The translations under genes were made by a program, and so were the position numbers. Shown here one piece after another: positions 8,456-38,062 of a stretch of 49,834 nt of DNA. The notes beneath the pieces are model-generated. The model was not told the origin of the DNA, did no database searches, and was given only the letters and a program-made list of their open reading frames with translations. Each line of letters starts with the position of its first letter. Within the stretch, counting starts at the first letter, position 1. Source of the stretch: Mayamaea pseudoterrestris (lineage: Eukaryota); the NCBI GenBank assembly GCA_027923505.1, contig BROI01000014.1, forward strand, positions 868,001-917,834, written 5' to 3'.

Positions 8456-8456
8456 C

Positions 8457-11740: not shown

Positions 11741-12074
11741 GACAAGGAAATGGCATGAGAAGTTGTACGTGAAACCTAGCAAAGCAGTGCGACCCGGATC
11801 GTTTGCACCTTCATTTTAACACTTACGTGAACAAAACAATCAATATATAGATAACGAATAGTATACATTGATGTAAATGTTGATAGGTCGTGAGTTGTGG
11901 CCGCAAAGAACAGTTACATCACGAAGATACACTTCAACATTGCCTGTGTCACGTATAAAACGCGATTTCGTCCTACCGGTACTCGACATCAATTTCGGAT
12001 GCGCGCCGCGACGCAGATTCGACCACAAATCAACTTAGAAAACCTTGTCAGATGGCCTTATCTATCGGCAAATC

Positions 12075-14971: not shown

Positions 14972-15374
14972 TGCTATTTGCTATGAATAGTTCGATACAC
15001 TGACAAGTGAATAAACGTAAAACAATCTTAGTTGATGCGTTATTGCTATAGAGACTGAGCTGTCGACAAGTGAATTGTTGTATTTCGCTTCGATTAGTAG
15101 CGCGGTAGCAACCACTCGGTTAGCGTACCCGCAGCCAGAAGCGGTCATTTGCAACGCAGCTGAGCGCGAATATCTCTCGGCAAGGAAGTTATTCTTTTGT
15201 AAAAGAAGGCATGGACACATTTTGAAGTTCTATAATGATGATGTGCTTACTCTAGTAACCATGAATAGTGAAGGAAGGCGCCATGATCGCGTCCAACGCA
15301 GAATGTCCGACTAAACTGTCGTACCGTTATCTGCAGTCGTGGCAAAAAAGCGCGAGTGGGAAAAAAGTTTGCAC

Positions 15375-15446
15375 TTCCCTCACCCGGGCTCGAACCGAGG
15401 ATACAGCATTCAAAGTGCTGGGTGATAACCACTTCACTATGAGGGA
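15375..15446 (-). tRNA. tRNA-Gln (anticodon UUG)
   Basis: Reverse complement TCCCTCATAGTGAAGTGGTTATCACCCAGCACTTTGAATGCTGTATCCTCGGTTCGAGCCCGGGTGAGGGAA. Anticodon arm is CAGCA-CTTTGAA-TGCTG and a T-run terminator follows. Confidence 0.9.
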
Positions 15447-15519
15447 CTGACAGAAAAAGCTCCAATTTTTATATATAAAACCTGGTATGCAGTCAAAACA
15501 AAATGGCAAGGACGGATGA

Positions 15520-15829
15520 ATCAGACATACAATCAGGCCTGTCGGCTCCTCCTTACGGACTTGCATATGAGCCTGTTGTCCCCTTTCAAATGGCAAAGCT
15601 ACAGTCAGGCCCTCTTGGTACACTACAACCAGTGGATCATCATCAAGATCCCAGGTACAGTATCAAGGAACCACCAACCAAATTCTATGGAGAAAGGCCC
15701 TGCACTACAAAAGGCAAAGCTAGAGTCAAACCCTACAGTAAAAATTGTGGTGCTATACAGTCACACAGGGATCACGTCCTTCCGCACGCAAGTGCTGGGG
15801 CAGTGCCACAGACCGTGAGGTCCCCTTGT
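15520..15829 (+). mobile_element. LTR-like sequence, inverted homologue of about 19449-19655
   Basis: aaatggcaaagctacagtcaggccctcttggtacac...ggtgctatacagtcacacaggga...gcagtgccacagaccgtgaggtccccttgt aligns with the reverse complement of 19449-19655. The left limit is approximate. Confidence 0.7.
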
Positions 15830-18800
15830 CGATCAATCTCCAACAACAGCTCCACCATTTTGCCAGTGAAACAAACGTGTACCAATTCGTCCATGTCGGC
15901 CTGCATAAAAGTGCCTGGAACATCAACCACAGCAACCTCATGCCCTTCTATAGCGTCAATGATTGCCGTCAAAAATATGGCCTCCGTTGTGCTCGTGGGA
16001 GATGCCGCATCTTCCTTCACTGTGTACGCTCTTTGCTTGCATCCGTCTGCGCACCCGTGCCCCTTGACAGTGCCACACCTCTTGCACTTGAGAAACATCA
16101 AATACGCCAATGCATCCTTTTGCTGCTGCGGAGTCAAAGTGCAATGGGAGACTGCCTTCATGATGTGTCTGTTGTGTAGCTGCTGCATATCCTTGTGCAC
16201 TGCTTCCACACCAGTGTTGCCAAATGCCTTTGAACCTTGTTGCATGTTCATCTGTGCCATGACGAGTGGCTCTGACACTTCCTCTGCAGCGGCGAGCATG
16301 AACAATGAGCAAACAACCTAGGTTTGCATGCACGCAGGCCATACCAACCAGTGTGTGGACCATAGTGCGCATCAAAATCCTCTTTGTCTGCAGCTCCCTT
16401 GTTGGCTGGCACTCCTTAAATTTTGCCTTCATCATTGGGCACTCCTTCAATTTTGCCATCATCCACGGCCGGCATGTTGTCAAGGTTGCCATCAATGGCC
16501 TCACCGTCTGGCACTCCTTCGATTGCACTGTCATCATTGTTGTTGCTGTCGCTGTTGTTATCGCCATCAGTCGCATTCACTCCTTCGCTTCCGCTGGCAG
16601 AGTTGTCATCGCTGTGCGAAGCATAATCATCATTATCAGAGTTGTCATCATTGTCCTTGCTGTCATCATCATGCCACATGACTGGTTCAGTTGCTTCCGC
16701 ACCACGGTGGCGATCCATGAAAATGATGCCCGGATTGGCCTTCTGTTGATGAGCGAGGTGATGCACGTGCTCAATGACATCGTCAGGCATAGGCAAAGGT
16801 GTAACGTGACCACAATTCAGAATTTCGCCCAAAGACAAACTGTGGAAATAATACCCACCCTGCACATTCCCAGTTGGGCGCAAAGCCAGCGCACCGATTG
16901 TGCGTGCCTGCATGTCATTGCTGTGCGACTCGTGCGTCTGCACATACTGTCCGAATTCATACTTGCAATGCCAAGTAAAATCAACTGTCTGACCAGTCAC
17001 AATTGTGCGTGGGCTGAAATCCTTTGAAATGCTGCACTCATTCAAAAACGCATTCAACCAAAACACAGCAGACTTTGTCATCTCGAGAACCAAGTGAGCA
17101 GGCACGTGCTTAAATGGCAATGTGTTGTATGTTGCGCGCACGCGTTCCTTCATGACGCGGATAAACCAATCAATTTCACCAACGTGCTCATCCTCAGATA
17201 GAGCGTTGAGCGCCACTCTGAGATCCGCCAATACGCCAAGCATTGGTGCGAATTCGCCATCCATCAAAGCCACGATGACACGGAACCCACCGCGTGCATA
17301 AATCTTCAACACCGACTCAATTGCTTTCACCATAACCGGAAGCGTACGGTTTTGAATCACCTCAACCGTAGCAAAATGAATACTGTGGGAGAATGTCACC
17401 AACATAGGGACCTTGTTGATATACATAATGTCAGCATAAAGAGTAATGTCTCGATAGCGACTCATGATTGCAGGTGGAAGCTGCTCAACAATCGCAGGCT
17501 TCACCAGGTGCGACGCGCGACGCGTCATCTTTCCTTTCAATGAACCAACATCTGGCCCGAAGATGTGCTCAGCAGCCATGATGTCAGCCTTCATCACGGG
17601 ACAGTTTGGCAACTGATTGCTAGTGAGGATGCGCAGGTAATCCTTGAGGCTCGGCCGTCCAATTTTAATTTGCAATTCCCTAGCTTTAACAGCACGTAAA
17701 TAGTCATTATTGGTGTAGTTAGTACGGTTATTGTCTACCGTAGTCACCATCACCATGGCATCCTTGATGTCGCGCTTGCCTTTTGAAAAGCACTCGCAAA
17801 CATACAGCCCAGAGTCAGTCTCGACGAACTCTCGCTGCTTACCAACCGGCTTCACCACCACAAACTTTGGACGCTCCACGCCCAGCTTGAAATACTCCAC
17901 CATGAACTTCTTCCAGACTTGCGCCAAACTCAAAATGTTTGCCAGTCCCTGCGGATACCACCACACGGGCCCGTAGCCCTCCAGGTCGCCCATCATGTTC
18001 GTCCTCACTGTTCCAGCGTTGCACTTGATGACCATCCAAGTTGGAACCGGGCAAATGTTCTTCAGCATCTTGGCATTGCAGAACAGATCCACTGTTGACT
18101 GATTGTCCAAGAGTACAGCCTTTTTCAAAATGTTCACCTTTGGCGGCTGCGCGAACATGAGTACATCCGAACAAATCAGCTTGAATGTCCATGACTTGAT
18201 CCACAAGTTTGCAGCGCCCTTCGTACGTATGTGAGATCTCTTTGATGATTGCCAGCAACTGAATTCCGTCCGTGTCTTCCTCGGCATCTTAAAACTTGGC
18301 ATGCGACTTGACACAATCCTTCATACGCTCCGTGCATTGTCCATACAACACGGCGTAGAGGCCAGCAAGGAAGTCAGAGTACATGCGCACACGCTCAACA
18401 TGCTCTTTTTTTGTCAGCCTTATATTCCTTGAGCATTATGGAACAGTCCGAGTCCATCGTGTTGGCATCATTGACTGGATGCGCAGGCTCATCAAGAATC
18501 TTCAGTTCCACGTTGCGCATTCCCTTGAGCAGCTCCTTGGTATATTTCTTGAAGAAGCACCCAATGTAAGTGATAATTTCATTTGTTGTGCGGATGAATC
18601 CATCGGGATTGCGTGAACCGTTGTAATCGTAGATGTAACCAGCCAGTGTGGGCTCGCTGCCTTGGAAATTTCCGAGGCGCACAACTCGGTCCATTGAGTC
18701 TGCTTCCATTGCTGTTGCCTTGATTCCTGGCACAATTCCCAGCATGATTACCATGACAATAATGGTTGCGTCAGCTTCCTTCACTTGCTGGTGGAGCGGG

Positions 18801-18925
18801 AGGCGTTGCACCTCAACTGCTCGATGTCGCTCCTGTCATCGGAGTATTGCTCATCATCAAAGACATGTCTTTTCACTCCCTTCTTGGAGAAAATGTTGGA
18901 TCTAGAATATTTCTTGCGCGCCATT
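15830..18925 (-). mobile_element. Decayed Ty1/copia (CoDi-like) retrotransposon body: partial gag, protease, integrase, truncated RT
   Basis: Gag-like GSEPTLAGYIYDY...FIRTTNEII..YIG and LYGQCTE. Protease VLLDNQSTVDLF. Integrase ADIMYIN...MDGEF...EHVGEIDWFIR. RT start FLKCKRCGTVKGHGCADG...ASPT...VVDVPGTFMQADMDE, cut at ~15830. Stops, frameshifts and many R->C/H/W changes. Confidence 0.92.
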
Positions 18926-19279
18926 TAAGCAACACAAATGATTAAGCAGATCAGAGTCAATAAAACCACTTTACTTATTTTCTCCAAGAAGTGATCGTCC
19001 TTGATCCACTCCTTCTTTGCCGCTTACCGCGCTTGCTTAAACGTGACCGTCTTTGTGACATCATCCGTGTCGCTTTGGTTTGGGTTCTCATCATTGCTCA
19101 ACATAGATGTTTCCAGACATCTGCATTTTTATTTAGGAATTGCTAATCCTTTTCAGACTACAGAGGGTGAGGACGCGTTGCAAATGCTTCTGTACTGGAA
19201 CTGCATCATGTCAGATCATACACTTTGGTCTTTACAACAAACCACTCTCTCGGGCACTGGTGATGACCACTCCCATTGA

Positions 19280-19905
19280 TTTATTGCACACTACAAGGGC
19301 AGCTGAGACAACTCGTTCCTTTGCTGTTTGAGGCTTCAATCTACACAAGTCAGGCAGACAGAGAGATTAAAGACCAAGGTGTATTTCAAGCATCACTCAG
19401 ATAAATCAACTCCCTTGATTATTCTTAGGGTATATATTCTCGCGGTATGTACAAGGGGACCTCACTGTCTGTGGCACTGCCCCGGCACTTGCGCGCGGAA
19501 GGAGGTGTTCCCTGTGCGACTGTATAGCACCGCAAATTGTAGTGTTGGGCTTGACTGTATCGTATTGGTAGCTGGATGGTAGCTCCCTGGGATCTTGATG
19601 TAGATCTGCTGCTTGTAAAGTACCAATAGGGCCTGACTGTAGCTCTGCCATTTAGAGTGAAGGGCTTGTCTCCATGGTCGTATTCGAAGCTGGATGGTAT
19701 CTCCATAGACACCTGAGACCACTTTCATTTGCTGCTTGTAGTGCAGGGTTTGTAGTGTGGGGCCTGACTGTAGCTCTGCCTTTTGCAGTGTAGTAGTGCC
19801 TTTCCCAATGGCTCGTATCATATAGCTGAGTAGATACATGTGCACCTCTGCATGTAGTGCACAGGTGGGTGACGGTAGCTCTGCTATTGTGGTTAGGGCC
19901 TGTCA
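19280..19905 (-). mobile_element. Putative 5' LTR/leader of the copia element, with an internal repeated motif
   Basis: Non-coding sequence upstream of gag, homologous to 15520-15829. Motif ggcagagctacagtcaggccc occurs at 19629-19649 and 19760-19780, with a variant at 19867-19884. Termini not determined. Confidence 0.55.
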
Positions 19906-20275
19906 ATAATATTAATAGTATATGGATGTTACCTTTTTCCTATGTTATGGTACTGTACAGCTTTGTGCGGTCCTTATAGTTATCTGAAGTAATGCGTCAA
20001 TGTGACATTTAGCATTCCGACGGGTTCTGTACGTTAAAGTTTCATTAATTTACCGGTAGTCACACAAACACCTTGACTGACAGACGCGAGAAAATTTATA
20101 CTCACTGGACCCTACTTCGTATGGGTCAGTGATTTCTCCCACTCCATTGATTCTACACCATGGCTACTGTCCAAGAAGAAGAAGACATAGCTCCTCCATA
20201 CCATGAGGTCAACACAGGATGAGTGTGAGAGTTAAATAACTGGATCACCCTTGGGATGTAGAATAACAAACCATG

Positions 20276-21420
20276 TCACATAAGATTCAGGCTCTCCATT
20301 TGCCTACATTGCATCATCCCCAGAGTCCAAGCTTGTGCTACTCCATCCTCCATCACCGTCTCACCTCTCCAGAAATGCACTGGCCAAATTAATGGCCCAA
20401 ACACCGCATGGGGAAATAACTTGGTAAGCACGTCACTCGTGTTCTGCTTGCCCGAGAGGTGCTTGAAATGTAGCACTCCAAAGGCAATTGCTTTGCGAAC
20501 CCTGTGGTACGCAAGTGCATGGTGTTGCTTGGTAAGTGACGAGTGAGAAATAGTTGACAAAGCGACAATGCTCTCATTGTCTCCAAACATCCACGCAGGT
20601 CCATCCAATGGAACACCCATCACATACAGAGTGTACCGGAAATCCATAATCTGCTCTGTCACAGTCTTGGCAGAGACAAACTTGGATCCATACGTGGCAG
20701 TCTCAACGTGTTCTGTCTCTTGGACAACCACTCAACCAGAGCCTGGTTCAAGAAATGCAGGACACCCATGGCAGTGCGGCCTGTAGTATATACATGATAC
20801 AGGTTGGCGTCTTCAAAAGTTGTCAGACGGATGAATTTGCCCCTTGTCATGGGCATGTTCCATGGCTCCTCATCAGCGCTGTCTCCATAGACAGTCTATA
20901 CCCGCTCCACTGGCTCAGGTGCATCATGATGAGGAATGCCAAAGCAAAATGAATATCAGCATCCGGATACCGAGCAAGGTAGCCATCAATCCATTTCAAA
21001 CGCTAAAGATGGCCATACAGCGGCGCAACTAAAAAATGACCCATAGTGAAAGTTGTAACGAAACAAGCTTATTGCCCACTGAAGTGTCTTAATCACAGAC
21101 TGGTACATCCGAATACCCTTCACATCCAACTCATCAATATCAAGCTCAGAATGGTCAGAATCGTCCATGGGCGACATCCTCGGCTTGGCCTTCTCACCAA
21201 ACATCGTTTCATAGTTCTTGAGCAGCCGACCGATGTAAGTCTTGGCGCCCATGCACAGCGTTCCGTCAGGATCGCGGAAGAAGTCCGCACCCAAATGGTA
21301 GGAAATCGGACCAACACCTTTCAACTTGTAGTTGTACTTGGACTTGAGCTCCTCCGTGAAGGCCTTGGGATCCTTCATAGCCATGGCCAAATCACCACAA
21401 AGACACAGACGTACTCATAA
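20276..21420 (-). mobile_element. Second decayed copia (CoDi-like) fragment: RT C-terminal half plus RNase H
   Basis: YEYVCVFV[DD broken by frameshift]LAMAMKDPKAF...KLKGVGPISYHLGADF, then FEDANLYH..TGR, then VETATYGSKFVSAK...GDNES...HHALAYHRVR...NTSDVLTK. Confidence 0.9.
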
Positions 21421-21554
21421 TGCGTCAAGCAGCCTTCACTACATATCCATTGCCCATGTCACAGGAAGACCGTGAGTTTCTCGACAAGGTCATGCGAGAC
21501 GGCATCATTGACGAGAACCAACGCAAGACCATTCTTTGGGGTTCTCAGGTCTTA

Positions 21555-23070
21555 CAACATCTTCTCAGCACATCTTCTCAGCACATCTTCTCAGCACATC
21601 TTCTCAGCACATCTTCTCAGCACATCTTCTCAGCACATCTTTCAATGCAGATGTTTTTCTCATGCGTGAAAGTGAACGGCAAATTTTCATGGCGGAGCAG
21701 CGGTGCCTGCCCAAAGACCTGTTTGCTGATGCCACTGCCTCATATTATGATGTCCTCTGCTTCAAGCAAATTGTGGCAGCCTGCCCGCAACCGCACGGAT
21801 TTGCAGGTTCCCCAAGCCAATCTCCTTGAGCTCAACACCAAGTCCCAGAGCTCCTCCCGCTCCACCCTGGTGCAGCCCGGGTGTTTTTTGCAGTTCCAAG
21901 ACCATAAATACTGTTGAGACTGCAATGTACGGATCCGAGTTGGTTGTTCCCAAGACTGCAACGGAACAGACTATGGATTTCCAAACAACATCTTCTCAGC
22001 ACATCTTCTCAGCACATCTTCTCAGCACATCTTCTCAGCAAATCTTCTCAGCACATCTTCTCAGCACATCTTCTCAGCACATCTTCTCAGCACATCTTCT
22101 CAGCACATCTTCTCAGCACATCTTTCAATGCAGATGTTTTTCTCATGCGTGAAAGTGAACGGCAAATCTTCATGGCGGAGCAGCGGTGCCTGCCCAAAGA
22201 CCTGTTTGCTGATGCCACTGCCTCATATTATAATGTCCTCTGCTCCAAGCAAATTGTGGCAGCCTGCCCGCAACCACACGGACTTGCAGGTTCCCCAAGC
22301 CAATCTCCTTGAGCTCAACACCAAGTCCCAGAGCTCCTCCGGCTCCACCCTGGTGCGGCCCGGGTGTTTTTTTGCAGTTCAAAGACCATAAATACTGTTG
22401 AGACTGCAACGTACGGATCCGAGTTGGTTGTTGCCAAGACTGCAACGGAACAGATTATGGATTTCTAAACAACATCTTCTCAGCACATCTTCTCAGCACA
22501 TCTTCTCAGCAAATCTTCTCAGCAAATCTTCTCAGCACATCTTCTCAGCACATCTTCTCAGCACATCTTCTCAGCACATCTTCTCAGCACATCTTTCAAT
22601 GCAGATGTTTTTCTCATGCGTGAAAGTGAACGGCAAATCTTCATGGCGGAGCAGCGGTGCCTGCCCAAAGATCTGTTTGCTGATGCCACTGCCTCATATT
22701 ATGATGTCCTTTGCTCCAAGCAAATTGTGGCAGCCTGCCCGCAACCGCATGGATTTGCGGGTTCCCCAAGCCAATCTCCTTGAGCTCAACACCAAGTCCC
22801 AGAGCTCCTCCGGCTCCACCCTGGTGCGGCCCGGGTGTTTTTTTGCAGTTCAAAGACCATAAATACTGTTGAGACTGCAACGTACGGATCCAAGTTGGTT
22901 GTTGCCAAGACTGCAACGGAACAGATTATGGATTTCTAAACAACATCTTCTCAGCACATCTTCTCAGCACATCTTCTCAGCAAATCTTCTCAGCACATCT
23001 TCTCAGCACATCTTTCAATGCAGATGTTTCCCTCATAAATTCTGAACACAACTTCTCAGCACATCTTTCA
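21555..23070. repeat. Composite higher-order tandem repeat: (CTTCTCAGCACAT)n blocks of 6, 10, 9 and 5 copies separated by a conserved 353-354 bp spacer (3 spacer copies)
   Basis: 13-mer blocks start at 21561, 21992, 22476 and 22947. Spacers are 21639-21991, 22122-22475 and 22593-22946 and are near-identical. Confidence 0.95.
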
Positions 23071-23341
23071 ATCAAAGTTAACCTTGCTGGCTTGTGCGTT
23101 GTGTAGGTTTTTTATATGGCAAGTACTTACAAAGAGAAGTAAAAGAAAATACCAGTATGGTGTCCACCACAAAACAAGAATGAAGCCTGACACAATAATA
23201 TCAGACCACCTTTATTCCAGCAGCTACAATGGACTAGGAGTGATCAACCTCCTTGTCCAACACAGCAAGGCAACAACAACAACTCAATTGCTAGAATAAT
23301 GTGTGTTACATCACTACTCTACTTGTTCACTTCTTCTCTGT

Positions 23342-26300
23342 GCATTGTTTCATGATGTCAAAAGTGCAATGCATTCATCACTAGCCCATGCAGTCTTCAA
23401 GTTCCATGACAGGGACAGCCATCATTTCATGTCCCCAGGCTTGTCCTCAGTAGCTGGCTGCCATAACCCACTCCAACAGCCAGAGTGGTATCAATAGATA
23501 GCTGGCAGTTGACAGGCATTGTTTCATAATGTCAAAAGTGCAATGCATTCATCAATAACCCATGCAGTCTCAAAGTTCTGTGACAGGAACTGCCAGCATT
23601 TCATGTCCCCAGGCTTGTCCTCAGTTGCTGGCCACCAAAACCCAGTCCAACAGCCAGAGAGGTGTCAATTGATAGCTGGCAGTTGACAGGCATTGTTTCA
23701 TGATGTCAAAAGTGCAATGCATTCATCACTAGCCCATGCAGTCTTCAAGTTCCATGACAGGGACAGCCATCATTTCATGTCCCCAGGCTTGTCCTCAGTA
23801 GCTGGCTGCCATAACCCACTCCAACAGCCAGAGAGTGTCAATTGAAAGCAGGCAGTTGACAGGCATTGTTTCATGATGTCAAAAGTGCAATGCATTCATC
23901 ACTAGCCCATGTAGTCTCCATGTTCCATGACAGGGACTGCCAGCATTTCATGTCCCCAGGCTTGTCCTCAGTAGCTGGCCGCCATAACCCACTCCAACAG
24001 CCAGAGATGTGTCATTTGATAGCTGGCAGTTGACAGGCATTGTTTCATGATGGCAAAAGTGCAATGCATTCATCACTAGCCCATGTTGTCTCCAAGTTCC
24101 ATGACAGGGACTGCCAGCATTTCATGTCCCAAGGCTTGTTCTCAGTAGCTGGCCGCCATAACCCACTCCAACAGCCAGAGTGGTATCAATTGATAGCTGG
24201 CAGTTGACAGACTTTGTTTCATGATGTCAAAAATGCAATGCATTCATCAATAGCCCATGCAGTCTCCAAGTTCTGTGACAGGGACTGCCAGCATTATTTC
24301 CCAAGGCTTGTCCCCAGTAGCTGGCTGCCATGAACCACTCCAACAGGCAGAGAGGTGTCAATTGATAGCTGGCAGTTGCCAGGCATTGTTTCATGATGTC
24401 AAAAGTGCAATGCATTCATCATTAGCCCATGTTGTCTCCAAGTTCAGTGACAGGGACTGTCAGAATTTCATGTCCCCAGGCTTGTCCTCAGTAGCTGGCT
24501 GCCATAACCCACTCCATTGGCCAGAGAGGTATATATTGATAGCTGGCAGTTAACAGGCATTGCTTCAAGATGTCAAAAGTGCAATGCATTCATCACTAGC
24601 CCATGTAGTCTCCAAGTTCTGCAACAGGGACTGCCAGAGTTTTGTGTCCCCAGGCTTGTCCACAGTTGGTGGCTGCCATGACCCACTCCAATGGCCAGAG
24701 AGGTATAAATTGATTGCTGACAGATGACAAACATTGTTTAATGGTGTTACAAGTGCAATGCATTCATCAATAGCCCATGTAGTCTCCAAGTTCTGCTAGT
24801 AGGACTGCCTGAATTTCATGTCCCCAGGCTTGTCCTCAGTAGCTGGCCACCATAACCCACTCCAACAGCCAGAGAGGTATCAATTGATAGCTGGCAGTTG
24901 ACGGGCTTTGATTCGTGATGTCAAAAGTGCAATGCATTCATCACTAGCCCATGTGGTCTCCAAGTTCTGTGACAGGGACTGCCAGAATTTCATGTCCCCA
25001 GGCTTGTCCACAGTAGCTCGCTGCCATAACCCACTCCAACAGCCAGAGAGGTGTCAATTGATAGCTGGCAGTTGACAGGCATTGTTTCATGATGTCAAAA
25101 GTGCAATGCATTCATCACTAGCCCATGTAGTCTCCAAGTTCCATGACAGGGACTGCCAGCATTTCATGTCCCCAGGCTTGTCCACAGTAGCTGGCTGCCA
25201 TAACCCACTCCAACAGCCAGAGTGGTATCAATTGATAGCTGGCAGCTGACAGGCATTGTTTCATGATGTCAAAAGTGCAATGCATTCATCAATAACCCAT
25301 GCAGTCTCCAAGTTCTGTGACAGGGACTGGCGGAATTTCATTTCCCCATGCTTGTCCACAATAGCTAGCTGCCATAACCCACTCCAACAGCCAGAGAGGT
25401 GTCAACTGATAGCTGGCAGCAGACAAGCATTGTTTCATGATGTCAAAAGTGCAATGCATTCATCACTAGCCCATGTAGTCTCCAAGTTCCATGACAGGGA
25501 CTGCTATCATTTCATGTCCCCAGGCGTGTTCTCAGTAGCTGGCCGCCATAACCCACTCCAACAGCCAGAGTGGTATCAATTGATAGCTGGCAGTTGACAG
25601 GCATTGTTTCATGATGTCAAAAGTGCAATGCATTCATCACTAGCCCATGTAGTCTTCAAGTTCCATGACAGGGACTGCCAGCATTTCATGTCCCCAGGCT
25701 TGTCCTCAGTAGCTGGCCACCATAACCCACTCCAACAGCCAGAGTGGTATCAATTGATAGCTGGCAGTTGACAGGCATTGTTTCATGATGTCAAAAGTGC
25801 AATGCATTCATCACTAGCCCATGTAGTCTCCAAGTTCTGTGACAGGGACTGCCAGCATTTCATGTCCCCAGGCTTGTCCTCAGTAGCTGGCTGCCATAAC
25901 CCACTCCAACAGCCAGAGTGGTATCAATTGATAGCTGGCAGTTGACAGGCATTGTTTCATGATGTCAAAAGTGCAATGCATTCATCAATAGCCCATGCAG
26001 TCTCCAAGTTCTGTGACAGGGACTGCCCGCATTTCATGTCCCCAGGCTTGTCCTCAGTAGCTGGCTGCCATAACCCACTCCAACAGCCAGAGAGGTGTCA
26101 ATTGATAGCTGGCAGTTGACAGGCATTGTTTCATGATGTCAAAAGTGCAATGCATTCATCACTAGCCCATGTAGTCTCCAAGTTCCATGACAGGGACTGC
26201 CAGAATTTCATGTCCCCTGGCTTGTCCACAGTAGCTGGTGCCATAACCCACTCCAACAGCCAGAGAGGTGTCAATTGATAGCTGGCAGTTGACAGGCATT

Positions 26301-29300
26301 GTTTCATGATGTCAAAAAAGCAATGCATTCATCACTAGCCCATGTAGTCTCCAAGTTCCATGACAGGGACTGCCAGCATTTCATGTCCCCAGGCTTGTCC
26401 ACAGTAGCTGGCTGCCATAACCCACTCCAACAGCCAGAGAGGTATCAATTGATAGCTGGCAGTTGACAGGCATTGTTTCATGATGTCAAAAGTGCAATGC
26501 ATTCATCACTAGCCCATGTAGTCTCCAAGTTCTGTGACAGGGACTGCCAGAATTTCATGTCCCCAGGCTTGTCCTCAGTAGCTGGCCACCATAACCCACT
26601 CCAACAGCCAGAGAGGTGTCAATTGATAGCTGGCAGTTGACAGGCATTGTTTCATGATGTCAAAAGTGCAATGCATTCATCACTAGCCCATGTAGTCTCC
26701 AAGTTCTGAGACAGGGACTGCCAGATCACGATTTCAATTGATCGCCAGGCATTGTCCAATCAAAAGTAGCTGCCATAGTCCCACTCCAACAGCCAGAAAG
26801 CCAGGCTTGTCACAACTCACAATTGATAGCTGGCAGTTGACAGGCATTGTTTCATGATGCCAAAAAAGCAATGCATTCATCAAAAGCCCATGCAGTCTCC
26901 AAGTTCTGTGACAGGGACTGCCGGAATTTCATGTCCCCATGCTTGTCCACAGTAGCTAGCTGCCATAACCCACTCCAACAGCCAGAGAGGTGTCAATTGA
27001 TAGCTGGCAGTTGACAAGCATTGTTTCATGATGTCAAAAGTGCAATGCATTCATCACTAGCCCATGTAGTCTCCAAGTTCTGTGACAGGGACTGCCAGCA
27101 TTTCATGTCCCCAGGCTTGTCCACAGTAGCTGGCTGCCATAACCCACTCCAACAGCCAGAGAGGTGTCAATTGATAGCTGGCAGTTGACAGGCATTGTTT
27201 CATGATGTCAAAAGTGCAATGCATTCATCACTAGCCCATGTAGTCTCCAAGTTCCATGACAGGGACTGCCAGCATTTCATGTCCCCAGGCTTGTCCACAG
27301 TAGCTGGCTGCCATAACCCACTCCAACAGCCAGAGAGGTGTCAATTGATAGCTGGCAGTTGACAGGCATTGTTTCATGATGTCAAAAGTGCAATGCATTC
27401 ATCACTAGCCCATGTAGTCTCCAAGTTCCATGACAGGGACTGCCAGCATTTCATGTCCCCAGGCTTGTCCACAGTAGCTGGCTGCCATAACCCACTCCAA
27501 CAGCCAGAGATGTATGAACTGATAGCTGGCAGTTGACAGGCATCATTTCATGATGTCAAAAGTCTAATGCAAGCATCACTAGCCCATGTAGTCTCCTAGT
27601 TCTGTGACAGGGACTGCCAGACCAGGCTTGTCCACAGTAGCTGGCTGCCATAACCCACTCCAACAGCCAGAGAGGTATGAATTGATAGCTGGCAGTTGAC
27701 AGGCATTGTTTCATGATGTCAAAAGTGCAATGCATTCATTCCTAGCCCATCCAGTCTCCAAGTTCTGCGACAGGGACTGCCAGAATTTCGTGCCCCTAGG
27801 CTTGTCCTCAGTAGCTGGCTGCCATAACCCACTCCAACAGCCAGAGAGGTGTCAACTGATAGCTGGCAGTTGACAGGCATTGTTTCATGATGTAGAAAGT
27901 GCAATGCAGTCATTGCTAGCCCATCTAGTCTCCAAGTTCTGCGACAGGGACTGCCAGAATTTTGTGCCCCTAGGCTTGTCCACAGTAGCTGGCTGCCATA
28001 ACCCACTCCAACAGCCAGAGAGGTGTCAACTGATAGCTGGCAGTTGACAGGCATTGTTTCATGATGTCAAAAGTGCAATGCATTCATCACTAGCCCATGT
28101 AGTCTCCAAGTTCTGTGACAGGGACTGCCAGAATTTCATGTCCCCAGGCTTGTCCACAGTAGCTGGCTGCCATAACCCACTCCAACAGCCAGAGAGGTGT
28201 AAATTGATAGCTGGCAGTTGACAGGCATTGTTTCATGATGTCAAAAGTGCAATGCATTCATCACTAGCCCATGTAGTCTCCAAGTTCTGCAACAGGGACT
28301 GCCAGAATTTCGTGGCTCCAGGCATGTCCACAGTAGCTGCCTGCCATGACACACTCCAACCACCAGCGGGGTATACATTCATAGCTGGCAGATGACAGGC
28401 ATTGTTGCATGATGACAAAAGTGCAATGCATTCATCACTAGCCCATGTAGTCTCCAAGTTCCATGACAGGGACTGCCAGCATTTCATGTCCCCAGGCTTG
28501 TCCACAGTAGCTAGCTGCCATAACCCACTCCAACAGCCAGAGAGGTGTAAATTGATAGGTGGCAGTTGACAGGCATTGTTTCAGGATGTCAAAAATGCAA
28601 TGCATTCATCACTAGCCGATGTAGTCTTCAAGTTCTGTGACAGGGACTGCCAGAATTTTGTGTCCCCAGGCTTGTCCACAGTAGCTGGCTGCCATAACCC
28701 ACTCCAGCAGCCAGAGAGGTATACATTGATTGCTGGCAGTTGACAGGCATTGTTTCATGATGTCAAAAGTGCAATGCATTCATCACTAGCCCATGTAGTC
28801 TCCAAGTTCAGCGACAGGGACTGCCAGAATTTCATGTCCCCAGGCTTGTCCACAGACGCTGGCTGCCATAACCCACTCCAACAGCTAGAGGGGTGAAAAT
28901 TGATAGCTGGCTGTTGACAAGCATTGTGTCATAATGTTAAAAGAGCAATGCAGTCAATATAGCCCATGTAGTCTCCACGTTCTGCGACAGGGACTGCCAT
29001 AATTTTGTGTCCCAGGCTTGTCCACAGTAGCTGGCTGCCATAACCCACTCCAACAGCCAGAGAGGTGTAAATTGATAGCTGGCAGTTGACAGGCATTGTT
29101 TCATGATGTCAAAGGTGCAGTGCATTAATCACTAGCCCATGTAGTCTCCAAGTTCTGTGACAGGAACTGCCAGAATTTTGTGTCCCCTGGCTTGTCCACA
29201 GTAGCTGGCTGCCATACACCACTCCAACAGCCAGAGAGGAATAAATTGATAGCTGGCAGTTGACAGGCATTGTTTCATGATGTCAAAAGTGCAATGCATT

Positions 29301-32300
29301 CATCACTAGCCCATGTAGTCTCCAAGTTCTGCGACAGGGACTGCCAGAATTTCGTGTCCCCAGGCTTGTCCACAGTAGCTGGCTGCCATAACCCACTCCA
29401 ACAGCCAGAGAGGTATCAATTGATAGCTGGCAGTTGACAGGCATTGTTTCATGATGTCAAAAGTGCAATGCATTCATCACTAGCCCATGTAGTCTCCAAG
29501 TTCTGCGACAGGGACTGCCAGAATTTCATGTCCCCAGGCTTGTCCACAGTAGCTGGCTGCCATAACCCAATGCAACAGCCAGAGAGGTGTAAATTGATAG
29601 CTGGCAGTTGAAAGGCATTGTTTCATGATGTTAAAAGTGCGATGCATCCATCACTAGCCCATGTAGTCTCCAAGTTTGGCAACAGGGACTGCCTGAATTT
29701 ATGGTCCTAGGCTTGTCCACAGCAGCTGCCTGCCATAACTTACTCCTGAGGCCAGAGAGGGATACATTGATAGCTGGCAGTTGACAGGCATTGTTTCATG
29801 ATGTCAAAAGTGCAATGCATTCATCACTAGCCCATGTAGTCTCCAAGTTCTGTGACAGGGACTGCCAGAATTTCGTGTCCCCAGGCTTGTCCACAGTAGC
29901 TGGCTGCCATAACCCACTCCAACAGCCAGAGTGGTATCAATTGATAGCTGGCAGTTGACAGGCATTGTTTCATGATGTCAAAAGTGCAATGCATTCATCA
30001 CTAGCCCATGTAGTCTCCAAGTTCTGTGACAGGGACTGCCAGAATTTTGTGTCCCCAGGCTTGTCCACAGTAGCTGGCTGCCATAACCCACTCCAACAGC
30101 CAGAGAGGTATGAATTGATAGCTGGCAGTTGACAGGCATTGTTTCATGATGTCAAAAGTGCAATGCATTCATCACTAGCCCATGTAGTCTCCAAGTTCTG
30201 TGACAGGGACTGCCAGAATTTCGTGTCCCCAGGCTTGTCCACAGTAGCTGGCTGCCATAACCCACTCCAACAGCCAGAGAGGTGTAAATTGATAGCTGGC
30301 AGTTGACAGGCATTGTTTCATGATGTCAAAAGTGCAATGCATTCATCACTAGCTTATGTAGTCCTTAAATTCAATGACAGGGACTGCCAGAATTTCATGT
30401 CCCCAGGCTTGTCCAACATAGCAGGCTGCCATAACCCACTCCAGCAGCCAGAGAGGTATACATTGATTGCTGGCAGTTGACAGGCATTGTTTCATGATGT
30501 CAAAAGTGCAATGCATTCATCACTAGCCCATGTAGTCTCCAAGTTCTGTGACAGGGACTGCCAGAATTTCATGTCCCCAGGCTTGTCCTCAGTAGCTGGC
30601 TGCCATAACCCACTCCAACAGCCAGAGTGGTGTCAATTGATAGCTGGCAGTTGACAGGCATTGTTTCATGATGTCAAAAGTGCAATGCATTCATCACTAG
30701 CCCATGCAGTCTCCAAGTTCTGTGACAGGGACTGCCAGCCATTCATGTCCCCAGGCTTGTCCACAGTAGCTGGCTGCCATAACCCACTCCAGCAGCCAGA
30801 GAGGTGTAAATTGATAGCTGGCAGTTGACAGGCATGGTTTGATGATGTCAAAAGTTCAATGCATTCATCACTAGCCCATGTAGTCTCCAAGTCCTGCGAC
30901 AGGGACTGCCAGAATTTCGTGTCCCAGGCTTGTCCACAGTAGCTGGCTGCCATAACCCACTCCAGCAGCCAGCAAGGTATAAATTGATAGCTGGCAGTTG
31001 ACAGGCATTGTTTGATGATGTCAAAAGTGCAATGCATTCATCACTAGCCCATGTAGTCTCCAAGTTCTGCCACAGGGACTGCCAGAATTTTGTGTCCCCA
31101 GGCTTGTCCACAGTAGCTGGCTGCCATAACCCACTCCAACAGCCAGAGAGGTATACTTAATAGCTGGCGGTTGCCAGGCATTGTTTCATGATGTCAAAAG
31201 TCTAATGCAAGCATCACTAGCCTATGTAGTCTCTAAGTTCTGTGACAGGGACTGCCAGAATTTCGTGTCCCCAGGCTTGTCCACAGTAGCTGGCTGCCAT
31301 AACCCACTCCGACAGCCAGAGAGGTATAAATTGATAGCTGGCAGTTGACAGGCATTGTTTCATGATGTCAAAAGTGCAATGCATTCATCACTAGCCCATG
31401 TAGTTTCCAAGTTCAGTGACAGGGACTGCCAGAATTTCGTGTCCCCAGGCTTGTCCACAGTAGCTGGCTGCCATAACCCACTCCAACAGCCAGAGAGGTA
31501 TGAATTGATAGCTGGCAGTTGACAGGCATTGTTTCATGATGTCAAAAGTGCAATGCATTCATCACTAGCCCATGTAGTCTCCAAGTTCTGTGACAGGGAC
31601 TGCCAGAATTTCGTGTCCCCAGGCTTGTCCACAGTAGCTGGCTGCCATAACCCACTCCAGCAGCCAGCAAGGTGTAAATTGATAGCTGGCAGTTGACAGG
31701 CATTGTTTCAGGATGTCAAAAGTGCAATGCATTCATCACTAGCCCATGTAGTCTCCAAGTTCTGTGACAGGGACTGCCAGAATTTCGTGTCCCCAGGCTT
31801 GTCCACAGTAGCTGGCTGCCATAACCCACTCCAACAGCCAGAGAGGAATAAATTGATAGCTGGCAGTTGACAGGCATTGTTTCATGATGTCAATTGTGTA
31901 ATGCATTCATCACTAGCCCATGTAGTCTCCAAGTTCTGTGACAGGAACTGCCAGAATTTTGTGTCCCCAGGCTTGTCCACAGTAGCTGGCTGCCATAGCC
32001 CACTCCAGCAGCCAAATTTGTATGAATTGATAGCTGGCAGTTGACAGGCATTGTTTCATGATGTCAAAAGTGCAATGCATTCATCACCAGCCCATGTAGT
32101 CTCCAAGTTCTGTGACAGGAACTGCCAGAATTTTGTGTCCCCAGGCTTGTCCACAGTAGCTGGCTGCCATAGCCCACTCCAGCAGCCAAAGATGTATTAT
32201 TTGATAGCTGGCAGTTGACAGGCATTGTTTCATGATGTCAAAAGTGCAATGCATTCATCACCAGCCCATGTAGTCTCCAAGTTCTGTGACAGGGACTGCC

Positions 32301-35300
32301 AGAATTTCGTGTCCCCAGGCTTGTCCACAGTAGCTGGCTGCCATAGCCCACTCCAGCAGCCAGAGAGGTATAAATTGATAGCTGGCAGTTGACAGGCATT
32401 GTTTCATGATGTCAAAAGTGCAATGCATTCATCACCAGCCCATGTAGTCTCCAAGTTCTGTGACAGGGACTGCCAGAATTGCATGTCGCCAGGCTTGTCC
32501 ACAGTAGCTGGCTGCCATACACTCCGACAGCCAGAGAGGTGTAAATTGATAGCTGGCAGTTGACAGGCATTGTTTCATGATGTCAAAAGTGCAATGCATT
32601 CATCACCAGCCCATGTAGTCTCCAAGTTCTGTGACAGGGACTGCCAGAATTTCGTGTCCCCAGGCTTGTCCACAGTAGCTGGCTGCCATAACCCACTCCA
32701 ACAGCCAGAGAGGTATGAATTGATAGCTGGCAGTTGACAGGCATTGTTTCATGATGTCAAAAGTGCAATGCATTCATCACCAGCCCATGTAGTCTCCAAG
32801 TTCTGTGACAGGGACTGCCAGAATTGCGTGTCCCCAGGCTTGTCCACAGTAGCTGGCTGCCATAGCCCACTCCAGCAGCCAATTTGTATGAATTGATAGC
32901 TGGCAGTTGACAGGCATTGTTTCATGATGTCAAAAGTGCAATGCATTCATCACCAGCCCATGTAGTCTCCAAGTTCTTTGACAGGAACTGCCAGAATTGC
33001 GTGTCAACAGGCTTGTCCACAATAGCTGGCTGCCATAACCCACTCCAGCAGCCACATTTGTATGAATTGATAGCTGGCAGTTGACAGGCATTGTTTCATG
33101 ATGTCAAAAGTGCAATGCATTCATCACCAGCCCATGTAGTCTCCAAGTTCTGTGACAGGGACTGCCAGAATTTCGTGTCCCCAGGCTTGTCCACAGTAGC
33201 TGGCTGCCATACACCACTCCGACAGCCAGAGAGGTATTATTTGATAGCTGGCAGTTGACAGGCATTGTTTCATGATGTCAAAAGTGCAATGCATTCATCA
33301 CCAGCCCATGTAGTCTCCAAGTTCTTTGACAGGGACTGCCAGAATTTCGTGTCCCCAGGCTTGTCCACAGTAGCTGGCTGCCATTACCCACTCCAACAGC
33401 CAGAGAGGTATGAATTGATAGCTGGCAGTTGACAGGCATTGTTTCATGATGTCAATTGTGTAATGCATTCATCACCAGCCCATGTAGTCTCCAAGTTCTT
33501 TGACAGGAACTGCCAGAATTGCGTGTCAACAGGCTTGTCCACAATAGCTGGCTGCCATAACCCACTCCAGCAGCCACATTTGTATGAATTGATAGCTGGC
33601 AGTTGACAGGCATTGTTTCATGATGTCAATTGTGTAATGCATTCATCACCAGCCCATGTAGTCTCCAAGTTCTGTGACAGGGACTGCCAGAATTTCGTGT
33701 CCCCAGGCTTGTCCACAGTAGCTGGCTGCCATAGCCCACTCCAGCAGCCAGAGAGGTATGAATTGATAGCTGGCAGTTGACAGGCATTGTTTCATGATGT
33801 CAAAAGTGCAATGCATTCATCACCAGCCCATGTAGTCTCCAAGTTCTGTGACAGGGACTGCCAGAATTTCGTGTCCCCAGGCTTGTCCACAGTAGCTGGC
33901 TGCCATAGCCCACTCCAGCAGCCAGAGAGGTATAAATTGATAACTGGCTGTTGCCAGGCATTGTTGCATGATGTCAAATGTGCAATGCATTTATCACCAG
34001 CCCATGTAGTCTCCAAGTTCTTTGACAGGAACTGCCAGAATTTCTCCCCAGGCTTGTCCACAGTAGCTGGCTGCCATACCCCCTCACGCCAAATTGATAG
34101 CTGGCAGTTGACAGGCATTGTTTCATGATGTCAATTGTGTAATGCATTCATCACCAGCCCATGTAGTCTCCAAGTTCTTTGACAGGAACTGCCAGAATTT
34201 TGTGTCCCCAGGCTTGTCCACAGTAGCTGGCTGCCATAGCCCACTCCAGCAGCCAAATTTGTATGAATTGAAAGCTGGCAGTTGACAGGCATTGTTTCAT
34301 GATGTCAAAAGTGCAATGCATTCATCACCAGCCCATGTAGTCTCCAAGTTCTGTGACAGGGACTGCCAGAATTGCGTGTCCCCAGGCTTGTCCACAGTAG
34401 CTGGCTGCCAAACTCCACTCCGACAGCCAGAGAGGTATGAATTGATAGCTGGCAGTTGACGGGCATTGTTTCATGATGTCAAAAGTGTTTACATTCATCA
34501 CCAGCCCATGTAGTCTCCAAGTTCTTTGACAGGAACTACCAGAAGTTCGTGTCCCCAGGCTTGTCCACAGTAGCTGGCTGCCATAGCCCACTCCAGCAGC
34601 CAAAGTTGTATGAATTGAAAGCTGGCAGTTGACAGGCATTATTTATTGATGTCAAAAGTGCAATGCATTCATCACCAGCCCATGTAGTCTCCAAGTTCTG
34701 TGACAGGGACTGCCAGAATTGCGTGTCCCCAGGCTTGTCCACAGTACCTGGCTGCCAATCTCCACTCCGACAGCCAGAGAGGTATGAATTGATAGCTGGC
34801 AGTTGACAGGCATTGTTTCATGATGTCAAAAGTGTTTACATTCATCACCAGCCCATGTACTCTCCAAGTTCTTTGACAGGAACTGCCAGAATGTTGTCCC
34901 CAGGCTTGTCCACAGTAGCTGGCTGCCATAGCTCACTCCAGCAGCCAAATTTGTATGAATTGATAGCTGGCAGTTGACAGGCATTGTTTTATGATGTCAA
35001 TTGTGTAATGCATTCATCACCAGCTCATGTAGTCTCCAAGTTCTGTGACAGGGACTGCCAGAATTTCGTGTCCCCTGGCTTGTCCACAGTAGCTGGCTGC
35101 CATAGCCCACTCCAGAGACATTGTTTCATGATGTCAAAAGTGTAATGCATTCATCTCTAGCCCATGTAGTCTCCAAGTTCTGTGACAGGGACTGCCTAGA
35201 ATTTCGTGTCCCCAGGCTTGTCCACAGTAGCTGGCTGCCATAGCCCACTCCAGCAGCCAAATTTGTTTGAATTGATAGCTGGCAGTTGACAGGCATTGTT

Positions 35301-36019
35301 TCATGATGTCAAAAGTGTAATGCATTCATCTCTAGCCCATGTAGTCTCCAAGTTCTGTGACAGGGACTGCCAGAATTTTGTGTCCCAGGCTTGTCCACAG
35401 TAGCTGGCTGCCATAGCCCACTCCAGCAGCCAAATTTGTATGAATTGGAAGCTGGCAGCTAACAGGCATTGTTTCATGATGTCAATTGTGTAATGCATTC
35501 ACCACCAGCCCGTGTAGTCTCCAAGCTCTGTGACAGGAACTGCCAGAATTTTGTGTCCCCTGGCTTGTCCACAGTAGCTGGCTGCCATAGTCCACTCCAG
35601 CAGCCAAATTGGTTTGAATTGATAGCTGGCAGTTGACAGGCATTGTTTCATGATGTCAAAAGTGCAATGCATTCATCACCAGCCCATGTAGTCTCCAAGT
35701 TCTGTGACAGGGACTGCCAGAATTTCGTGTCCCCAGGCTTGTCCACAGTAGCTGGCTGCCATAGCCCACTCCAGCAGCCAAATTTGTATGAATTGATAGC
35801 TGGCAGTTGACAGGCATTGTTTCATGATGTCAAAAGTGCAATGCATTCATCACCAGCCCAATTTTATCTCCAAGTACTGTGACAGGACTGCCAGAATTTT
35901 GTGTCCCCTGGCTTGTCCACAGTTGCTGGCTGCCATAACCCACTCCGACAGCAGCCAGAGAGGTGTCAATTGATAGCTGGCAGATAACAGGCATTGTTTC
36001 ATAATGTCAAATGTGCAAT
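23342..36019. repeat. 174-bp tandem satellite array, about 73 copies (span divided by period)
   Basis: Unit start gcattgtttc at 23342, 23516, 23690 and onward. Consensus gcattgtttcatgatgtcaaaagtgcaatgcattcatcactagcccatgtagtctccaagttctgtgacagggactgccagaatttcatgtccccaggcttgtccacagtagctggctgccataacccactccaacagccagagaggtgtcaattgatagctggcagttgacag, about 49% GC with no CpG. Confidence 0.97.
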
Positions 36020-37775
36020 CATGTTTGTTGTTGTTATGGGCCAATGCTTTGATCAGCTGAACCCGTTCCAGGCTTTGCCGCCATGTAGTATGCCATGGTG
36101 ACACTGAGCAGATTCAATAACTTGTTGGCAGTGCAACTCAAGTGGCACTTGAGACTGCCAGAATGGCCTGCCAATCTTGGAATACAAAGCTCATGGTGTT
36201 TATTATTGATTAGAATGCAAAGGCTTGTCATTTCAGGTGTGGAACCCTTCCCCCTGCTGCGAGACTCTGCACATTCAACCATTGGTCGAATGTGCCAGCA
36301 AGTCATCCTTTCTGGCTACAGGGACCATCAGCACAGCCTTCTGAGCCCTTCAATCCTTCTCCATTCATGTTTGTTGTCATGACGGGCCAATGCTTTGGTC
36401 AGCTGCACCCATTCCAGTCTTGGGTCATGTAGTATGCCATGGTGAGACTCACCAGATCCAACAACTTTTTGGCAGTGCAACTCAAGTGGCGCTTCTGCTG
36501 GTATGGCCTGCCAATCCTGGAATACAAAGCTCATTGTGATTATAGTTGATTAAAATGCAAAGGCTTGTCATTTCAGGTGTGGAACCCTCCCCCCTGCTGC
36601 AAGACCACACACATTCAACCATTGGTTGAATGTGCCAGCAAGTCATCTTGTCTGGCTACAGGGACCATCAGCACAGCCTTCTGTGCCCTTCAATCCTTCT
36701 CCAATCATGTTTGTTGTTGTGATGGGCCAATGATTTGATCAGTTGCACCCATTCCAGTCTTGGCCACCATGTAGATGCCATGGTAAGACTCAGCAGATCC
36801 AAGAACTTGTTGGCAGTGCAACTCAAGTGGCACTTCAGACTGCCAGAATGGCCTGCCAATCCTGGAAAACAACGCTCATGGTGTTCATAATTGATTAGAA
36901 TGCAAAGGCTTGTCATTTCAGCTGTGAAGCCCCTCCCCCTGCCATGAGACTCCGCACATTCAACCATTGGTTGAATGTGCCAGCAAGTCATCCTTTCTGG
37001 CTACAGGGACCATCAGCACAGCCTTCTGAGCCCTTCAATCCTTCTCCATTTATGTTTGTTGTCATGACGGGCCAATGCTTTGGTCAGCTGCACCGATTCC
37101 AGTCTCGGGTCATGTAGTATGCCATGGTGAGACTCAGCAGATCCAACAACTTGTTGGCAGTGCAACTCAAGTGGCACTTCAGACTGCCCAAATGGCCTGC
37201 CAACCCTGGAAAACAAAGCTCATGGTATAATTGATTAGAATACAAAGGCTTGTCATTTCAGGTGTGGAACCCTTCCCCCTGCTGCAAGACTCCGCACATT
37301 CAACCATTGGTTGAATGTGCCGGCAAGTCATCCTTTCTGGCTACAGGGACCATCAGCACAGCCTTCTGAGCCCTTCAATCCTTCTCCATTCATGTTTGTT
37401 GTCATGACGGGCCAATGCTTTGGTCAGCTGCACCCATTCCAGTCTTGGCTGCCATGTACTATGCCATGGTGAGACTCAGCAGATCCAAGAACTTGTTGGC
37501 AGTGCAACTCAAGTGGCACTTCAGACTGCCAGAATGGCCTGCCAATCCTGGAAAACAAAGCTCATGGTGTTTATAATTGTTTAGAATGCAAAGGCTTGTC
37601 ATTTCAGGTGTGGAACCCTTCCCCCTGCCGCGAGACTCCGCACATTCAACCATTGGTTGAATGTGCCAGCAAGTCATCCTTTCTGGCTACAGGGACCATC
37701 AGCACAGCCTTCTGAGCCCTTCAATCCACCTCCATTCATGTTTGTTGTCATGACGGGCCAATGCTTTGGTCAGTT
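36020..37775. repeat. ~343-bp tandem satellite, about 5 copies, alternating A/B variants
   Basis: Marker gggaccatcagcacagcc at 36321, 36661, 37006, 37346 and 37692 (periods 340/345/340/346). Confidence 0.95.
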
Positions 37776-38062
37776 TCAGCTCAGCAGCCCGTACCATGAT
37801 GTGACTGGTGTTCCAAGTACCGCTCCGACGGTCATTTTTCACACGATTGAAACCTCACCTAGGGATACACTCGCGGCGCGCGCAGTCTTTTCCCTCCCAA
37901 GCGGAGGGACGAGTTTGACTTTTGTGACCGACCGACAGCGACCATCGTTTCGTTCCTTCCTTCGATCCTCCTACTCCGACCGTCCAATTGCTCCACCTTC
38001 ACATGCCAAGGGATCAAGGGGACGACGACTCGCAGCAAAAGAACAAGACTAATAATAGACGA

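Follow-up and report, generated by a model that had tools for sequence, protein, structure and literature searches.

Centromeres and abundant satellites have been described in several organisms to which the locus considered here can be compared, a gene-free island of satellite arrays and decayed retrotransposons in the diatom Mayamaea pseudoterrestris, contained in a stretch of 49,834 nucleotides of contig BROI01000014.1 (the window; all coordinates are positions within it). Centromeric satellite monomers measure 171 bp in the human alpha satellite and 178 bp in Arabidopsis. CENP-A mapping of diatom centromeres has, to our knowledge, been performed in Phaeodactylum only. According to the available part of the respective paper, Phaeodactylum tricornutum centromeres are short and lack highly repeated elements, their guanine-cytosine (GC) content staying below 33% for 500 bp or more (10.1101/096016), which matches the contrast drawn when a satellite-type regional centromere was proposed for the window from its letters alone (the original prediction). 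Equally, the accessible text on Fistulifera solaris reports predicted centromeres with a GC content of 36-42% and without highly repeated elements (10.1101/2021.11.10.468027). In Phytophthora sojae, clusters of copia-like elements (CoLT) mapped by CENP-A mark the centromeres (PMC7082073, as far as available), and the putative centromeres of Ectocarpus have been described, in the portion of the paper at hand, as regions of the ECR retrotransposon of 6.8-154 kb with a median of 38.6 kb (PMC11541908). Abundant satellites have also been reported: PpSat1 and PpSat2 in Phytophthora parasitica, with PpSat1 proposed as centromere candidate by its abundance and monomer length (PMC7290008, in part), and a subtelomeric satellite of ~98 bp in Ectocarpus (PMC11541908, in part).

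The island of M. pseudoterrestris extends over approximately 22 kb, is built of dead copia elements together with three tandem arrays and is embedded between flanks (1-15374 and 37774-49834) packed with long gene-like open reading frames (ORFs), which, by their summed coordinates, cover about 67% of the left and about 51% of the right flank. As judged from the ORF translations, all frames between 15447 and ~37990 are derived from transposons or repeats; the gene-free island in a compact gene arm that had been predicted is thus borne out, with no non-transposon gene inside and ORF-filled flanks. Tandem repeats account for about 70% of the island, and its GC content is 0.48-0.49. The explanation to which we incline, with moderate confidence, is that the locus represents an island of methylated constitutive heterochromatin composed of satellites and transposons, seeded by copia elements upstream of a transfer RNA (tRNA) gene and one of many such arrays. 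Satellite DNA beside transposon debris is a well-known kind of feature.

That the host might be a diatom had been considered from the sequence, and M. pseudoterrestris is indeed a raphid pennate diatom; the product of the flank ORF at 7304-8455 shows, over 70% of the query, 99% identity to a protein labelled with this species name. The available part of its genome paper (PMC9724779) places the species, in the order Naviculales, together with Phaeodactylum tricornutum (bootstrap 93), with Fistulifera next, and describes a 30.6-Mb assembly of 41 contigs with an N50 of 1.07 Mb, built from nanopore reads with an N50 of 8.6 kb, the chromosome number being not yet estimated. The same source assigns 19% of the genome to repeats, mostly Ty1/Copia, with 2.26 Mb as 'Unclassified' and 'Satellites 0' (Table S3), and the words centromere, satellite and telomer- do not occur in its main text as far as available. 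The Phaeodactylum telomere-to-telomere paper, which reports 25 chromosomes, does not use the words tandem and satellite, and an annotation paper on 49 genomes makes no mention of satellites. Equally, neither an abundant satellite of nucleosome length nor a satellite centromere was found for any diatom in the full-text literature searched, outside of which lie subscription-only papers and bioRxiv supplements.

The satellite arrays and their genome-wide abundance

The largest array is composed of 73 head-to-tail monomers of a 174-bp satellite on the plus strand at 23342-36019. Its extension has been delimited by Tandem Repeats Finder (TRF; 174-bp period at 23342-35114 with 67.8 copies and 91% matches, and at 35119-36019 with 5.2 copies), by a BLAST search of the window with the first monomer (75 rows, each on the plus strand and within 23342-36019) and by our own segmentation into 73 monomers over 12,678 bp (most of 171-175 bp, with outliers of 137, 157, 163, 177 and 200 bp), all of which confirm the predicted array of ~12.7 kb. 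The monomers share a mean pairwise identity of 0.89. No higher-order repeat was found in the array, with the identity flat at 0.893-0.909 for lags of 1-24 and the lags of the best partners scattered, and a homogenised core with higher-order repeat, typical though not universal for satellite centromeres, is thus not present. Monomers 10-60 are closer to the consensus (identity 0.948) than the first 9 (0.922) and the last 13 (0.902), a gradient that unequal exchange produces in any array.

The GC content of the 174-bp array, 0.485, equals that of the flanks and the genome average, with no AT-rich tract, and the array contains no TTAGGG or CCCTAA telomere motif. A dimer of the monomer does not show dyad symmetry (z +0.85; 79 of 100 shuffles fold as well). 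All six frames of the consensus contain at least one stop per monomer, and a 123-aa frame of the array, searched against proteins, returned, among candidates of 67-216 aa, a single one, which was not significant. All characteristics of a satellite, a tandem monomer of ~100-500 bp, hundreds to thousands of genomic copies and a non-coding nature, are found. A coding origin has been considered on the basis of codon phase, as substitutions are distributed 293/225/182 over the three positions (chi-square p 1.5e-6), and was given no weight, because few shared hot-spot columns drive the skew and the monomers are not independent. A common origin of the 174-bp unit, the 340-bp unit, the copia pieces and the flanks was equally rejected, as no BLAST match was obtained at E<=1e-3.

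Adjoining on the right, a 340-bp satellite with 5.1 copies on the plus strand occupies 36019-37773 (TRF); its units measure 340-344 bp, so that the predicted period of ~343 bp was a fair estimate. All five units contain a palindrome of 25-27 nt with arms of 11-12 bp (at ~36269-36295, 36610-36634, 36954-36979, 37294-37319 and 37640-37665), which as single-stranded DNA folds far above shuffled sequences (z -3.5 to -7.6; 0-1 of 200 shuffles as good). Strong palindromes are sometimes tied to centromeres.

A striking property of the arrays is their depletion in CpG. The ratio of observed to expected CpG is 1.06 in the left and 1.13 in the right flank, 0.67 in the transposon part, 0.46 in a 471-bp array described below, 0.17 in the 340-bp array and 0.08 in the 174-bp array, in which TpG (1.64) and CpA (1.90) are raised against the flanks (1.16 and 1.25). 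In total, the 73 monomers hold 58 CpGs, and the sole CpG of the consensus, at monomer positions 87-88, reads CG in 25, CA in 29 and TG in 13 of the 73. As a decay of CpG to TpG and CpA is what deamination of methylated CpG leaves behind, we infer that the arrays are, or for long were, CpG-methylated heterochromatin.

The abundance of both families beyond the locus has been estimated from contigs of sequencing runs aligned to 34280-39999, a segment that comprises 10 monomers of 174 bp, the 340-bp array and 2.2 kb of flank; in one search, six runs were found to hold parts of 19000-28999. Runs X1 and X5, which represent two independent studies, contributed 3953 and 1766 contigs, respectively, aligned to these 5.7 kb. 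In both runs the flank is covered by pieces without a single differing letter (records 3, 4 and 6 of X1; records 27 and 28 of X5), which demonstrates that the organism is present in both. The median word depth of the flank is 120 in X1 and 35 in X5, and the summed word depth over 18 satellite bins ranges from 773 to 205,592 and from 196 to 17,190, respectively. Relative to the single-copy flank, the summed word depth amounts to ~560x (X1) and ~180x (X5) for the 174-bp family and to ~220x and ~83x for the 340-bp family. Multiplied by the bin width and divided by the flank depth, the summed depth puts the 174-bp family at ~0.96 Mb (X1) or ~0.30 Mb (X5) and the 340-bp family at ~0.38 Mb or ~0.14 Mb per haploid genome, values good to the order of magnitude only, as summed contig depth does not equal copy number. 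Together, the two families would constitute roughly 1-3% of the genome.

Across bins with equivalent monomers the depth varies 40-fold, which suggests that each contig has been placed once and not at every copy that it fits. Even a ten-fold overestimate would still leave several times 12.7 kb of the 174-bp family. Since the satellites are hundreds of times deeper than the flank in two studies, the array is not confined to one locus; such confinement, which the original prediction had named as an outcome speaking against it, is excluded by the depth in X1 and X5.

Where the 340-bp array meets the flank, contigs of both runs span the border at single-copy depth (record 2 of X1, 37678-38365, depth 85.7; record 26 of X5, 37709-38220, depth 22.1), which shows that the junction is real. 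Compared with the window, the junction contig at 37678-38365 has 18 differing letters and 7 gaps in X1, against 24 and 13 in X5, which is suggestive of variation among alleles or strains, or of remaining long-read errors, at the array edge. Within the 340-bp family, the segment around the palindrome is the part most widely common among the aligned contigs: many contigs of X1 and X5 match only ~36940-36984 or 36940-37157 and then diverge into loose ends that agree with one another at 0.74-0.97. This short shared core with similar ends points to several diverged subfamilies of the 340-bp family around a conserved palindromic core.

Two further runs, X2 and X3, from the study of X1 with other organism labels, contain both satellites at low depth, ~0.04-0.08% of that in X1, aligned to 34280-37717. 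Their bin profile follows that of X1 (Spearman 0.89 for both) with next to no cover of the flank, and the signal is likely to stem from a very close relative or from carry-over inside the study. Conservation of the satellites in other species has consequently not been accepted from X2 and X3, as the profile of X1 is mirrored and the flank barely covered. Metagenome contigs scanned with conserved monomer words of 22 and 25 nt gave 0 matches with each.

Copia remnants, borders and flanking genes

The left part of the island is occupied by transposon debris, in which the predicted cluster of decayed copia elements is supported by the domains of relatives and by colinear tblastn matches. The best preserved element, a truncated Ty1/copia-type (CoDi-like) retrotransposon at 15826-18679 on the minus strand, has been recognised by relatives, tblastn and Atlas clusters. 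With seven relatives as queries, tblastn delineates, colinear on the minus strand, gag (18679-18169), protease-integrase (18167-16695) and an N-terminal part of the reverse transcriptase (RT; 16508-15826). A 634-aa ORF at 16416-18320 on the same strand has 386 relatives at E<=0.001, one of which is named a Fragilaria reverse transcriptase and some of which carry RVT_2 (PF07727) or zf-CCHC (PF00098), and the Atlas features of the copia part lead to diatom integrase and gag_pre-integrs clusters. Through the colinear matches of relatives bearing PF00098 and PF07727, the order gag, protease, integrase and RT with a copia-type RT is found. A Pfam search at E<=0.01 of six transposon ORFs, the 634-aa ORF included, identified no family, and the RT piece of the element itself shows a weak match to RVT_2 (E 0.021, profile 33-98).

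The element breaks off within the RT (~15826) and is devoid of the RT C-terminus, RNase H and 3' long terminal repeat (LTR). In the left part of the island, no intact element with a complete pol between paired direct LTRs was found, and LTR-like fragments occur in inverted orientation only, at 71-92% identity. Such fragments are located at 15480-15829 and 19451-19902 (inverted repeats I1/I2/I6, 87-92% complementary; BLAST 71.5% over 242 nt). The former is probably the remnant of a second element in opposite orientation, and the latter, an LTR-like region with internal short direct repeats identified by repeat search and BLAST, may be what is left of the 5' LTR belonging to the element at 15826-18679. 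A second decayed copia fragment at 20276-21414 on the minus strand comprises a frame-shifted RT C-terminus and RNase H-like part with a weak RVT_2 match below the Pfam cut-off (E 0.02, profile 181-231 of 244); inspected by eye, its ORF translations look like copia RT and RNase H. In the published repeat table of the species, as far as available, 1259 Ty1/Copia pieces total 3.3 Mb (PMC9724779), so that copia as a class is not rare in the genome.

A third array, absent from the original prediction, follows at 21559-23072 on the plus strand and consists of a 471-bp tandem repeat in 3.2 copies (TRF; repeats D1/D2 and I3-I5; BLAST 80-86%). Each unit combines a run of a 13-bp microsatellite (ACATCTTCTCAGC) with the copia segment 20639-20707, present as an inverted copy of 69 nt, which shows that this array originated on the spot from copia debris. 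Between the 471-bp and the 174-bp array lies a unique spacer at 23073-23341, noticed in the GC scan as part of the lowest-GC 500 bp of the window, which are nevertheless well above 0.33.

The left border is formed by a tRNA-Gln gene with anticodon TTG on the minus strand (ARAGORN; Rfam RF00005, 58.7 bits). The tRNA gene that had been predicted is hence present; its position, 15375-15446, is just outside the predicted start of the island at 15480. The repeat island begins ~35 bp upstream of the 5' end of this gene. Ty1-type elements of yeast integrate upstream of tRNA genes. The start of copia sequence beside tRNA-Gln may thus hint, as a lead by analogy, at a Ty1-like targeting. Two additional tRNA genes have been detected by ARAGORN and Rfam, tRNA-Lys at 11666-11741 on the minus strand and tRNA-Gln-CTG at 41456-41528 on the plus strand, and Rfam identified nothing but these three tRNAs in the entire window. 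Three tRNA genes in 50 kb, two to the left and one to the right of the island, seem dense for a 30-Mb genome. In fission yeast, tRNA genes serve as chromatin boundaries at the centromeres.

At the right end of the island, the first flanking gene is predicted to encode a Cas1-type acyltransferase with 10 transmembrane segments (Pfam PF07779) at 37928-39743 on the plus strand. It is composed of two exons, with open frames at 37928-38371 and 38607-39743 and a gene start at ~37990, and matches PF07779 with E 2.6e-9 (profile 54-147) and E 2.6e-26 (profile 180-465). A piece of this gene, 38732-38962, is represented by two contigs each in X1 and X5 at similar depths, one of which equals the window exactly and the other of which differs in 22 of 231 letters and would belong to a paralogue or to a second, strongly diverged allele. 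Between the exons, at 38341-38549, DNA contigs of X1 and X5 possess joints that skip 207 and 116 letters, which may reflect an allelic indel in the intron. Further to the right, the Atlas search with the ORF at 41932-43569 led to the MpaB family only. In the left flank, 11076-11235 is a perfect tandem duplication of 80 bp (2.0 copies, 100% identity), 430 bp from tRNA-Lys, which looks very recent. CAG/CAA and GCA codon repeats within flank ORFs (3314-3338, 5177-5232 and 45827-45869) look like ordinary tracts of the polyglutamine or polyalanine type.

Explanations for the island

The formation of a constitutive heterochromatin island can be envisaged in a few steps. Copia elements would have landed by a Ty1-like targeting of genes transcribed by RNA polymerase III; the arrays would grow, shrink and partly homogenise through unequal exchange and replication slippage, and their methylated CpGs would decay to TpG and CpA. 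The locus would be one among many sites of both satellite families, with no role in the kinetochore. That the three arrays of 471, 174 and 340 bp are mutually unrelated, non-coding and CpG-depleted supports heterochromatin, and interstitial heterochromatin, mentioned as the alternative in the original prediction, fits at least as well as a centromere. In fact, even if not centromeric, the locus would still clearly exemplify satellite heterochromatin decayed by methylation in a genome of 30 Mb.

A number of points speak against this explanation. A gene-free island of transposons and nucleosome-length satellite in a gene-dense region also bears resemblance to a small regional centromere, and the type of centromere can shift fast between relatives. 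The 0.3-1.0 Mb of the 174-bp family distributed over 25-41 chromosomes or contigs result in 7-38 kb each, which brackets the 12.7 kb observed; this agreement is suggestive, and many interstitial sites, or few large plus small blocks, fit equally well. Equally, the strong palindrome recurs in all 5 units of the 340-bp array, methylation is deduced from sequence decay, and the Ty1-like targeting of tRNA genes rests on one insertion site.

The competitor that survives best is a regional centromere of the satellite type, with one 174-bp array per chromosome, CENH3 nucleosomes on the array and perhaps the 340-bp satellite and copia beside it, which we consider unlikely. It would account for the 22-kb gene-free island between gene-dense flanks and for a monomer near nucleosome length; the family abundance in two studies is compatible with one array of 7-38 kb per chromosome, transposon-rich centromeres exist in Ectocarpus (putative) and Phytophthora sojae (CENP-A-mapped) according to the accessible parts of the papers cited above, and no rival low-GC candidate is situated within the 50-kb window. 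On the other hand, the GC content of the array, 0.485, is that of the genome average with no AT-rich tract, a higher-order repeat is not seen at a mean pairwise identity of only 0.89, and the centromeres of the sister taxa, CENP-A-mapped or episome-tested, are short, low in GC and without highly repeated elements as far as described in the available text. Furthermore, the window covers ~5% of the 917,834-bp contig, elsewhere on which a low-GC centromere could lie.

In its more far-reaching form, this proposal holds that Mayamaea has replaced a Phaeodactylum-type centromere by CENH3-bound 174-bp arrays of ~10-40 kb, flanked by the 340-bp satellite and copia, one per chromosome, which appears doubtful to a slightly greater degree. 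The short, low-GC and repeat-free centromeres of Phaeodactylum underlie diatom episome technology. If the 174-bp satellite formed one CENH3-bound array per chromosome, diatoms would have their first satellite centromere, the type of centromere would have switched recently between close relatives, and the design of episomes for other diatoms would need rethinking.

Less probable again is a mobile element as carrier or source of the satellites, which could, for instance, be internal or terminal tandem repeats of a non-autonomous transposon, with the copy number resulting from transposition to many sites and subsequent local amplification. The contigs of X1 and X5 that share a short palindromic core of the 340-bp unit before continuing into unlike, mutually similar ends would fit such an origin, as would the neighbouring 471-bp array that arose from a copia fragment. 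However, such loose ends may be no more than satellite variants with indels, the 174-bp and 340-bp arrays are bounded neither by a transposase nor by terminal repeats or a target-site duplication, neither array resembles the local copia pieces by BLAST and the 123-aa frame of the 174-bp array has no protein relatives.

Very improbable is a pericentromeric position, in which the arrays would be heterochromatin adjacent to a true centromere consisting of a short low-GC stretch beyond the window. The CpG depletion of the arrays is heterochromatin-like and relatives use low-GC centromeres, as stated in the consulted portions of the papers; yet the ~15 kb to the left and ~12 kb to the right hold ordinary genes at high density and no low-GC stretch, so that any low-GC centromere would not adjoin the arrays. 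An array or junctions created or mis-sized by the long-read assembler are scarcely credible, as, although an array longer than most reads can collapse or expand (the nanopore read N50 of the published assembly is given as 8.6 kb in the available text), contigs of two studies bridge the junction of the 340-bp array with the flank at single-copy depth and satellite contigs number in the thousands in both runs.

Comparison with known centromeres and satellites

Constitutive heterochromatin, as we favour it, can be placed alongside several described systems. The start of the copia-type remnants ~35 bp upstream of the 5' end of a tRNA gene resembles Ty1 in budding yeast; unlike there, a single site is concerned and the other two tRNA genes of the window have no adjoining transposon.

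With the centromeres of Phaeodactylum and Fistulifera, the island shares the affiliation of the host to the order Naviculales and an intergenic location in a compact genome, and differs by its extension over 22 kb, its GC content of 0.48-0.49 and its composition of repeats. According to the available text, the Phaeodactylum type is defined by ~500 bp with a GC content below ~33% and clustered 100-bp windows with GC <=32% (10.1101/096016). In the 50-kb window no such low-GC stretch was found, the lowest GC content over 500 bp being 0.398 (22851-23350), and only three 100-bp windows (50-bp steps), scattered at 11801, 14951 and 43551, have a GC content <=0.32. Equally, the lack of repeats that characterises the Phaeodactylum type is not seen in an island of three tandem arrays and transposon remnants.

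The centromeres of P. sojae and Ectocarpus are alike in being gene-poor clusters of LTR retrotransposons, of copia type in P. sojae as here, and the size of the island is within the range of Ectocarpus. In contrast to the Ectocarpus regions, in which tandem repeats are minor (3.5%, as given in the available part of the paper), such repeats constitute about 70% of the island, and nothing indicates that the copia family of the island is specific to centromeres. PpSat1, PpSat2 and the ~98-bp satellite of Ectocarpus are, like the families described here, abundant stramenopile satellites of unknown function; they differ in sequence and monomer length, and the present array is interstitial between genes with no telomere motif.

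Compared with the centromeric satellites of animals and plants, the 174-bp array is small, 12.7 kb versus hundreds of kilobases to megabases, and it lacks both a higher-order repeat and AT-richness. On the other hand, it resembles them in its head-to-tail order, the near-nucleosome length of its monomer, the abundance of the family, the retrotransposon remnants beside it and the greater divergence of the monomers at its edges.

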